Both the position numbers and the translations under genes were made by a program. From the sequence record MN850566.1: a stretch of 64,000 nt of DNA; one strand, written 5' to 3'. The notes under the pieces were generated by a model. That model saw nothing but the letters and a program-made list of their open reading frames with translations, made no database searches and had not been told where the DNA came from. This DNA comes from Escherichia phage garuso. Shown here piece after piece: positions 38,214-38,909 of this stretch (position 1 is its first letter; each line of letters starts with the position of its first letter).

Positions 38214-38285
38214 CAGAAGACCAATTACAGCAAACTTAATCTACTCATCTGAAAGTTAATCGGACAAAGAAGATATTTGGTCTGG
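38214..38285 (+). ncRNA. Candidate structured RNA element a (stem-closed, Y-RNA-like)
   Basis: 5' CAGAAGACCAAT-TACAGCAA … 3' ATTTGGTCTGG; 7-bp closing stem AGACCAA/TTGGTCT around an AT-rich ~45-nt interior; between tRNA-Glu and tRNA-Met. Confidence 0.4.
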
Positions 38286-38296
38286 TCATTAAGAAT

Positions 38297-38373
38297 TGCG
38301 GGTATAGAGAAAGGGCGTCTCACATGTCTCATTAGCATGGTATCGGCAGGTTCGACTCCTGCACCCGCCTCCA
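38297..38373 (+). tRNA. tRNA-Met (anticodon CAT; initiator, elongator or lysidine-Ile2 not distinguishable)
   Basis: Anticodon stem CATGT/GCATG, loop CTCATTA; T-arm GCAGG-TTCGACT-CCTGC; CCA encoded; 1-72 position unpaired in my fold. Confidence 0.6.
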
Positions 38374-38379
38374 AATTTA

Positions 38380-38444
38380 CAGAAGACCGTTTACAGCAAT
38401 ACTTATTAAATTTTTAGCGGAAAAAATTGAAATATACGGTCTGG
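38380..38444 (+). ncRNA. Candidate structured RNA element b
   Basis: 5' CAGAAGACCGTT-TACAGCAA … 3' ACGGTCTGG; closing stem AGACCGT/ACGGTCT, compensatory change relative to copies a and c. Confidence 0.4.
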
Positions 38445-38457
38445 TAATACTAAACAT

Positions 38458-38534
38458 GGTTAGGAAGCACATAAGGTATGTGCGGTCGCCTGTTAAGCGA
38501 ATGGCACAGGGTTCGAATCCCTGACTAACCGCCA
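38458..38534 (+). tRNA. tRNA-Asn (anticodon GTT)
   Basis: D-arm GCAC…GTGC, loop CTGTTAA, T-arm CAGGG-TTCGAAT-CCCTG, CCA encoded. Confidence 0.7.
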
Positions 38535-38603
38535 AATTTAGGAGAGAAGCAATTGCTCACCGATTTGTAAGGTGCAAGTCCTTAGCCTGAATAGAAATTA
38601 AAT

Positions 38604-38691
38604 GTGTCGTTATCCCGTAGATGGTAGCGGTGGGGACTGTAAATCCCTTGTCATTGAGACTCGGTAGGTTCGACTCCTACACGGCACACCA
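38604..38691 (+). tRNA. tRNA-Tyr (anticodon GTA), long variable arm
   Basis: Acceptor GTGTCGT/ACGGCAC, anticodon stem GGGGA/TCCCT with loop CTGTAAA, 15-nt variable arm, T-arm GTAGG-TTCGACT-CCTAC, CCA encoded. Confidence 0.7.
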
Positions 38692-38696
38692 ATAAA

Positions 38697-38774
38697 GGTT
38701 ATGTAGTTTAATTTGGTTAAAATACTCCCCTGTCACGGGAGATGATGAGGGTTCAAATCCCTTCGTAACCGCCA
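38697..38774 (+). tRNA. tRNA-Asp (anticodon GTC)
   Basis: Acceptor GGTTATG/CGTAACC, anticodon stem CTCCC/GGGAG with loop CTGTCAC, T-loop TTCAAAT, CCA encoded. Confidence 0.75.
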
Positions 38775-38835
38775 ATTTTGAGAGGGCTATTTAGCCCCTC
38801 CCTTAAAGAGTTCTTACGAGTATTCTTTAAAGGAG

Positions 38836-38909
38836 CAGAAGACCAAATACAGCAAGAATGTATGAAATTTCAAGCCAATTTAATTTTGAAAATTTAAAAC
38901 TTGGTCTGG
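38836..38909 (+). ncRNA. Candidate structured RNA element c
   Basis: 5' CAGAAGACCAAA-TACAGCAA … 3' CTTGGTCTGG; closing stem AGACCAA/TTGGTCT. Confidence 0.4.

Follow-up and report, generated by a model that had tools for sequence, protein, structure and literature searches.

The window analysed here, a 64,000-nt stretch of DNA from Escherichia phage garuso (MN850566.1), comes from a Felix O1-like myovirus; its positions 37880-39400 match Salmonella phage Felix O1 and many Felixounavirus genomes at 97-99% identity. It contains a gene encoding a Ro60-like protein and, downstream, an array of 25 tRNA genes called by ARAGORN (38045-43522, every one on the + strand). Four repeated elements, termed a to d, are intercalated between the tRNA genes; they begin 339 nt 3' of the Ro60-fold open reading frame (ORF), on the same strand. 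We report here on the structure of these elements, on their distribution in related phages and on their relation to the Ro60-like protein.

The Ro60-like gene and the four elements

In Ro60 and TROVE proteins, HEAT-like repeats form a ring, after which comes a vWA domain with a MIDAS motif. The window protein has this architecture, its DxSxS motif corresponding to residues 279-283 within the vWA domain. Its kinship to Ro60 is visible by fold comparison only (11-17% identity to solved Ro60s), and its Pfam matches are DUF2828 and DUF7788 only. This protein lineage was counted in 709 phage records, and the window protein is the orthologue, at the same genomic position, of gp130 of Bas63 (Escherichia phage JohannRWettstein). 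A DUF5681 ORF (36011-36382, + strand) lies directly upstream of the Ro-like gene and accompanies it in Ounavirinae only (7 of 169 loci, tblastn). Two sigma-70-like promoter candidates stand upstream of the tRNA array containing a-d; they are consensus matches only, and a promoter function is presumed from these matches.

An earlier note, made from the letters of this DNA alone, had described a repeat with CAGAAGACCNNNTACAGCAA at its 5' end and N'N'N'GGTCTGG at its 3' end, the variable triplets of the two ends being complementary. Both descriptions hold. Exactly four copies of CAGAAGACCNNNTACAGCAA were found in the window, all on the + strand and with 0 mismatches (at 38214, 38380, 38836 and 38923), compared to a mean of 0.11 matches in shuffled sequence (none of 100 shuffles gave four), and N'N'N'GGTCTGG comes 55-127 nt after each copy. 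The strands of the closing helix are AGACCAA/TTGGTCT in a and c, and AGACCGT/ACGGTCT in b and d. The span given for the family, 38214-38909, does hold a, b and c; element d lies outside it. Minimum-free-energy (MFE) folds of the four elements are all closed by the 7-bp helix. As the earlier note had stated, a-c are devoid of tRNA features, no tRNA being called in them by ARAGORN or by the Rfam tRNA model. That reading is nevertheless incomplete, since it overlooked the upstream Ro60-like gene and the permuted tRNA-like core of d (Table 1).

Table 1. Elements a to d, with the Ro60-like gene and promoter candidates located upstream (window coordinates)
Feature	Position	Strand	Details
Element a, short type	38214..38285	+	helix 38218-38224 (AGACCAA) with 38277-38283 (TTGGTCT); motif TACAGCAA 38226-38233; conserved G 38284; between tRNA-Glu (ends 38206) and tRNA-Met (starts 38297)
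Element b, short type	38380..38444	+	helix 38384-38390 (AGACCGT) with 38436-38442 (ACGGTCT); G 38443; between tRNA-Met (ends 38373) and tRNA-Asn (starts 38458)
Element c, short type	38836..38909	+	helix 38840-38846 (AGACCAA) with 38901-38907 (TTGGTCT); G 38908
Element d, long type	38923..39054	+	helix 38927-38933 with 39046-39052; motif TACAGCAA 38935-38942; G 39053
d, variable-arm-like hairpin	38958-38974	+	MFE fold
d, T arm	38979-38995	+	GAAGG TTCGATT CCTTC; MFE fold
d, capped acceptor-like hairpin	38996-39013	+	ACTCGGC agat GTCGAGT, 7 bp, four-base cap; MFE fold
d, D arm	39016-39030	+	GTGT AATGGTA GCAC, after TG; MFE fold
Ro60-like protein gene	36464..37879	+	471 aa, HEAT-repeat ring and vWA domain
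Sigma-70-like promoter candidate 1	37898-37926	+	TTGACA-17-TAATAT; consensus scan, 10/12 matches
Sigma-70-like promoter candidate 2	37989-38018	+	TTGACA-18-TAAAGT; consensus scan, 10/12 matches

A conserved frame beside the protein gene

The distribution of the elements was analyzed in 80 viral loci carrying homologues of the Ro-like protein, 75 of which encode proteins only about 40-45% identical. The elements share a frame composed of a 7-bp helix strand, one base, the motif U(A/U)CAGCAA, an insert, the complementary strand and then a G. The helix starts with an A-U pair and an invariant G-C pair, followed by five variable pairs, and the frame presents the single-stranded motif on the inner 5' side of the helix and the G beyond its 3' strand. 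With a strict descriptor (xG+5 nt, N, T[ATG]C[ACT]GCA ... 7-bp complement, G), a perfect partner was found on the strand of the gene for 117 of 262 motif instances, compared to 0 of 103 on the opposite strand and to 4 of 262 after shuffling of the 235 nt downstream. At least one strict match is present in 62 of the 80 loci (up to five per locus), mostly within 400 nt up- or downstream of the gene; in most of the remaining 18, the 5' motif is found beside the gene and the element is longer or imperfect. At positions that the descriptor leaves free, conservation is seen both in the motif (U 82%, A 76%, and A after GCA 83%) and in the helix (A 72%, U 78%). Another 80 loci, taken from bacterial genomes and metagenome-assembled genomes and fetched after the descriptor was fixed, gave 56 matches on the strand of the gene, 7 on the opposite strand and none in shuffled sequence.

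The strict matches include 53 distinct helix sequences, all compensated. The presence of these compensated helices beside the homologues bears out the proposal of the earlier note that selection acts on an RNA stem and not on sequence alone. In eight Ounavirinae genomes a-d are syntenic, with invariant frames and with a-c interiors differing in length and sequence; intermediate states of the helix are found there (AGACCGA/TTGGTCT and AGGCCGT/ACGGTCT, both with G-U). Several named phages have two to four copies next to the gene. Mycobacterium phage Kingsolomon and Listeria phage LP-083-2 have three each; in Kingsolomon the middle copy contains a T/acceptor/D module, and in LP-083-2 an RtcB-like ligase is encoded at a distance of 1.3 kb. 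The others are Klebsiella phage FBKp34, Campylobacter phage CJLB-7, Staphylococcus phage S-CoN_Ph16 and Shigella phage Sf14, in which a-d are in synteny.

These data bear on two explanations that involve no dedicated RNA. The elements might be inert spacers of the tRNA array, or processing signals for RNase III, E or P that are degraded after tRNA maturation, as the earlier note had envisaged as a possible refutation. Elements a and b do lie in a polycistronic cluster, only 8-13 nt from the mature ends of the flanking tRNAs, and same-strand tRNA genes are located near the gene in 30 of the 80 viral loci. However, the other 50 have no tRNA gene within 4 kb, and 33 of these tRNA-free loci retain a strict element beside the gene, indicating that the RNA family follows the protein gene rather than tRNA arrays. 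Furthermore, the motif and frame are kept from Actinobacteria to Campylobacter phages, whereas other tRNA spacers are not conserved, and those of the window lack the motif. We therefore regard the spacer explanation as very improbable.

Alternatively, the repeat could act as mobile or recombinogenic DNA, such as an element resembling a miniature inverted-repeat transposable element, a homing-endonuclease target or a recombination site. The four copies have identical 20-nt 5' ends within 850 bp, and HNH endonuclease genes have been gained and lost in this tRNA array. Against this stand the strict strand bias relative to the gene in both sets of loci (117 vs 0 and 56 vs 7), the compensation of helix changes in the RNA sense only, the synteny of all four copies in the 8 Ounavirinae genomes, and the lack of target-site duplications and of terminal inverted repeats beyond the 7-bp helix, so that a DNA element is barely credible. 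A repetitive extragenic palindromic (REP)-like intergenic repeat or an intrinsic terminator was also considered and rejected, given the strict strand bias and a terminator scan in which none of a-d was called.

RNA ligase genes neighbour the Ro-like gene in some loci: a T4 Rnl1-type ligase and a metallophosphatase in locus L168 (3279-7555), and the RtcB-like ligase of LP-083-2 (locus L083, 5315-6458). Over 169 loci, tblastn detected Rnl1 in 5, RtcB in 8 and the phosphatase in 7.

The permuted tRNA-like module of element d and other inserts

One frame encloses an exchangeable module, which is a permuted tRNA mimic in d and an A/U-rich insert with a small hairpin in a-c (TTTCAA...TTGAAA in element c). 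The module of d is circularly permuted, with an acceptor stem closed by a loop and with ends exiting at the position of the anticodon arm. The Rfam tRNA model gives a partial match to d (38946-38996, 22 bits, below the threshold of 29), and ARAGORN calls no tRNA in native-order d. When the 5' half of the element was moved to the front in silico, ARAGORN called a tRNA in 5 of 6 elements, namely d and five relatives (6 of 6 in relaxed mode), compared to 0 of 6 in native order; these calls depend on ARAGORN treating the helix region as an intron, and their anticodon assignments are arbitrary. Conserved parts of d-type elements are the T-loop, the UA junction and the D-loop with its GG, while the acceptor hairpin covaries; an anticodon arm is not conserved, and a-d show no complete tRNA cloverleaf. 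In Shigella phage Sf14 the acceptor-like hairpin of d is swapped for an unrelated sequence that still forms a hairpin. A scan for a T arm followed by a capped 7-bp hairpin revealed d-like modules beside the gene in many unrelated viral loci.

Covariation was assessed in two sets of elements. In the first, 49 non-Felix elements with distinct helices were trimmed to equal length, because MAFFT misaligned the 3' helix strand of full-length short elements; double-sided changes were found at 6 of the 7 helix pairs, the second pair being always G-C. As pairing was imposed by the descriptor, these counts are circular and only the diversity of the helices is informative; the statistical weight is thus carried by the strand and shuffle controls and by an unbiased second set. 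For the latter, 12 d-type elements of distant loci were simply aligned with MAFFT, and RNAalifold found in this alignment the closing helix, T arm and acceptor-like hairpin. In this alignment 92% of cells are paired compared to 63% in shuffles, double changes affect 15 of 17 pairs, and the covariation score is 0.746 compared to 0.24 in shuffles (none of 500 reaching 0.746) and to 0.11-0.19 when partners were slid by one to three columns. Covariation in homologues, the check that the earlier note had called for, is therefore observed.

Circularly permuted tRNA genes, in which the 3' half stands before the 5' half, occur in Cyanidioschyzon merolae and some archaea. As in these genes, the 3' half comes first in d-type modules, and in loci L029 (5947-6066, 6154-6289) and L052 (5528-5636) the joining loop of the acceptor-like hairpin opens with a discriminator base and CCA (for example ATTTTCC-G-CCA-att-GGAAAAT). 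A nicked tRNA-like molecule ending in CCA could thus arise by RNase P cleavage and 3' trimming, and from their sequence these particular elements look like true permuted tRNA genes. In contrast to permuted tRNA genes, the family shows no conserved anticodon arm, most of its members have no tRNA part, and the break is closed by the protein-associated helix and not by a bulge-helix-bulge splice motif. Non-permuted tRNA-like inserts (D arm, anticodon-like arm, T arm) are also found in the frame, at L052 3758-3854, L075 3755-3831 and L114 1684-1798, where the protein-associated helix replaces the acceptor stem; both topologies of tRNA mimic are therefore present in the RNA family.

The elements could be autonomous tRNA-mimic decoys or permuted tRNA genes, directed against host nucleases that target tRNA or against tRNA enzymes, and independent of the Ro-like protein, their adjacency to the gene reflecting co-regulation only. 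The detection of the permuted core by ARAGORN, the discriminator and CCA of L029 and L052, and the non-permuted inserts are in line with such a role. But in the majority of family members, a-c among them, the helix/UACAGCAA frame is retained without any tRNA-like part, which identifies the frame as the constant feature travelling with the protein, and an anticodon arm is not conserved. We consider decoys acting on their own improbable.

Inserts of other kinds are found in the same frame. A different conserved module (…CCUUUCUGGAGGGGAAAGCAAAAACUCGCCAA…) is carried by L006 3276-3371, L007 3133-3233, L011 149-281, L016 1265-1374 and L028 3734-3829, and structured inserts of 150-250 nt are present in other loci (for example L006 2840-3065 and L078 3435-3674); neither the CCUUUCUGGAGGGGAAAGCAAAAACUCGCCAA-type modules nor these longer inserts have an Rfam match. 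The interiors of short-type elements are A-rich (window 38214-38909; loci L012-L014, L027 and L067). They are enriched in GGAAA (7 of 29 interiors vs 0.77 expected), and AGCAA is repeated two to three times at ~15-nt spacing in several loci; these sequences may constitute a second protein-binding feature.

Other features of the tRNA array were noted. The earlier note had proposed a looser relative of the family at 41264-41345. This segment shares only GAAGACCGT with it and has neither the CAGCAA motif nor the 3' arm; it is therefore no member of the RNA family and was ruled out. A stable hairpin at 41258-41348 (+ strand, z -3.87), between tRNA-Thr and tRNA-Val, contains the GAAGACCGT common to b and d and is conserved in relatives, Sf14 among them; it could represent either a decayed relic or a structured spacer of unrelated origin. 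Directly after d lies a 149-nt element (39055-39203, + strand) with a ~24-bp terminal stem (MFE -48.3 kcal/mol, z -5.85) and without the family motif; six Felixounavirus loci carry it with 95-99% conservation and Sf14 lacks it, and a reverse-strand 'hypothetical protein' coding sequence (CDS) is annotated over it in the Bas63 record. Between tRNA-Met and tRNA-Ile, an HNH-type ORF of 164 aa (39369-39863, + strand; CxxC ... HH ... CxxC-H) was found in the window and in L003 only, being absent from L001, L002, L004, L005 and Bas63; a Pfam search gave no match for this ORF, which is probably a mobile homing-endonuclease insertion. A weak Rfam tRNA match (40181-40259, + strand, 31.7 bits) was missed by ARAGORN at a place where relatives carry tRNA-Arg(TCT), and the preceding conserved 240-nt spacer (39943-40179, + strand) shows sub-threshold tmRNA-like matches and a TTGACA box at its start.

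Resemblance to Ro60-Y RNA particles

Ro60-Y RNA particles, known as an autoantigen and as a classic system of RNA surveillance, have hardly been explored in viruses. By analogy with these particles, we consider it probable (about 0.78) that elements a-d are small non-coding RNA (ncRNA) genes whose products are Y-RNA-like partners of the upstream Ro60-like protein; together, protein and RNAs resemble, in viral form, the Ro60-Y RNA particles of animals and bacteria. As expected for Y RNA genes, the elements are next to and co-oriented with a Ro60 orthologue, here a structural and not a TROVE sequence homologue, and paired 5' and 3' ends surround a variable module in MFE folds and by covariation.

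The closest parallel is provided by YrlA and YrlB, which accompany Rsr in Salmonella, Mycobacterium smegmatis and mycobacteriophages (PMC4201824). There too, the RNA genes are co-oriented beside the gene of a Ro60-type ring protein, often in several copies, and YrlA combines a terminal stem of 5' and 3' ends, a conserved 5'-side motif and a distal module that mimics tRNA with its arms in the order V, T, acceptor-like, D (PMC4201824). This order is that of the module of d, and its T arm, acceptor-like hairpin and D arm recur in at least one copy in many related loci; a-c, in which it is absent, resemble YrlB, the shorter sibling without tRNA mimic (PMC4201824). As in YrlA/YrlB systems, RtcB is an occasional neighbour, and the RNA ligase genes near the Ro-like gene echo the bacterial rsr-yrlBA-rtcBA operon (PMC7790460). 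The differences are that the protein matches DUF2828/DUF7788 and not TROVE, that the conserved motif is U(A/U)CAGCAA after the 7-bp helix, together with the 3' G, in place of GNCGAAN0-1G, and that in Felix O1-like phages the RNA genes are interleaved with tRNA genes. A scan with Rfam 15, covering 36000-45000 (E<=1) and, at gathering score, 16 related loci, returned tRNA and tmRNA only, the presence of a YrlA model in Rfam being unconfirmed. Given the non-TROVE protein, the different motif and the lack of an Rfam match, the RNAs were not filed as members of YrlA.

Other Ro60 systems were compared as well. In Thermus phage phiLo, whose Ro60-Yrl1/2 complex follows a matching logic, Ro60 is a canonical TROVE protein and Yrl1 and Yrl2 were chosen by their CGAA motif (PMC12135203; PDB 9KOP, 9L5Y), whereas the RNAs described here have no CGAA and come from a separate and much larger phage lineage. 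Unlike here, metazoan Y RNAs with Ro60 (Xenopus 1YVP/1YVR) are transcribed by RNA polymerase III, have a bulged helix GGUCCGA and no tRNA-like module. For Bas63, gp130 was reported to be structurally Ro60-like and to counter the Ppl defence system, and its authors guessed that Y RNAs might be found among the neighbouring tRNA genes, the text naming no RNA (10.1101/2024.10.10.617714). In contrast to that guess, the present candidates are four unannotated elements between tRNA genes and not the annotated tRNA genes themselves; in the Bas63 record, two of the four are overlaid by reverse-strand 'hypothetical protein' CDSs. The part of the literature covered on DUF2828, Ro-like phage proteins and Felixounavirus ncRNA holds no description of these RNAs.

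Several points weigh against the assignment of a-d as Y-RNA-like partners. The pairing of protein and RNAs is drawn from co-location, co-orientation and analogy. Pfam TROVE (PF05731) is not matched by the protein, and phmmer and a family hidden Markov model (HMM) run against PDB sequences retrieved no Ro60 chain for the DUF2828/DUF7788 protein. Neither the 5' regions of a-d nor any part of a-c contain the motif implicated in Ro/Rsr binding of Y RNAs (GNCGAAN0-1G / CGAA; PMC4201824, PMC12135203); a GGCGAAG inside the T stem of d is a chance occurrence that is not kept in relatives. The thermodynamic z-scores of a-d are modest (-1.2 to -2.2), and the helix statistics of the 49 elements were drawn from elements selected for perfect pairing. 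Finally, a covariance model built on these trimmed elements (R1) missed a-d in the window and gave one spurious match in a coding region (E 0.17); as R1 cannot span a loop insert of 20-100 nt, this miss is technical and is not evidence against membership.

The position of some copies also counts against this assignment. In many related loci, copies stand 10-60 nt before a start codon or directly after a stop codon, and in Campylobacter and Listeria phages they occupy the 5' leader region, positions that would suit a role as mRNA leader. The elements would then be cis-acting operators in an mRNA or a precursor, bound by the Ro-like protein or another factor so as to control the translation or stability of the protein's own message or the processing of the tRNA precursor, and would not accumulate as free small RNAs. 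Such operators are not expected in up to 4-5 copies per locus, some of them 1-3 kb away with tRNA genes and promoters in between; in the window, the two promoter candidates separate the gene from a-d, and elaborate covarying tRNA-like modules would be superfluous. Moreover, the rsr operon transcript is itself the precursor of bacterial Y RNAs, and a leader position is thus no argument against free RNAs. We consider the operator explanation unlikely. No single rival accounts at once for an association with the gene that is strand-specific across phyla and for the conservation of the frame around very different inserts.

If a-d are Y-RNA-like RNAs, the candidate promoters at 37898 and 37989 would drive their transcription along with that of the tRNA array, and a and b would be released by RNase P and 3'-end processing of the adjacent tRNAs. 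The ring protein would bind the frame of helix and motif, as Ro60 binds the conserved stem of Y RNAs, and the module might tether a host or phage factor that recognises tRNA, or gate the ring; a tethered factor could be PNPase, by analogy with Ro60-Y RNA-PNPase complexes, or an RNA-repair ligase. During infection, the particles may serve RNA surveillance, RNA repair or counter-defence, roles that fit the phenotype of gp130 against Ppl and the RNA ligase genes found near the Ro-like gene in some loci. A broader proposal, to which we give even odds, is that DUF2828/DUF7788 proteins and helix-UACAGCAA RNAs form a second Ro60-Y RNA-like ribonucleoprotein lineage across phages, with its own recognition code and with a plug-in slot for permuted or non-permuted tRNA mimics and other structured domains. 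The RNAs of Felix O1-like phages would owe their maturation to the tRNA-processing machinery, and they would represent the missing cofactors of gp130 in its action against the host Ppl defence or in the repair or survey of RNA damaged by host nucleases.

Candidate RNA partners are now available for the Ro60-like protein of more than 700 sequenced phages, including model and therapeutic ones: Felix O1, Bas63, Listeria P100-like phages, and phages of Staphylococcus, Campylobacter, Vibrio and mycobacteria. The proposed recognition element (7-bp helix, UACAGCAA and 3' G) is simple and testable, and the published guess for Bas63 becomes four specific unannotated loci in a system with a phenotype, gp130 against Ppl. 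The analysis also points to spurious reverse-strand ORFs annotated over these RNAs in genome records. A single putative protein-binding frame carrying very different modules would be informative as to how Y RNAs recruit their partners.

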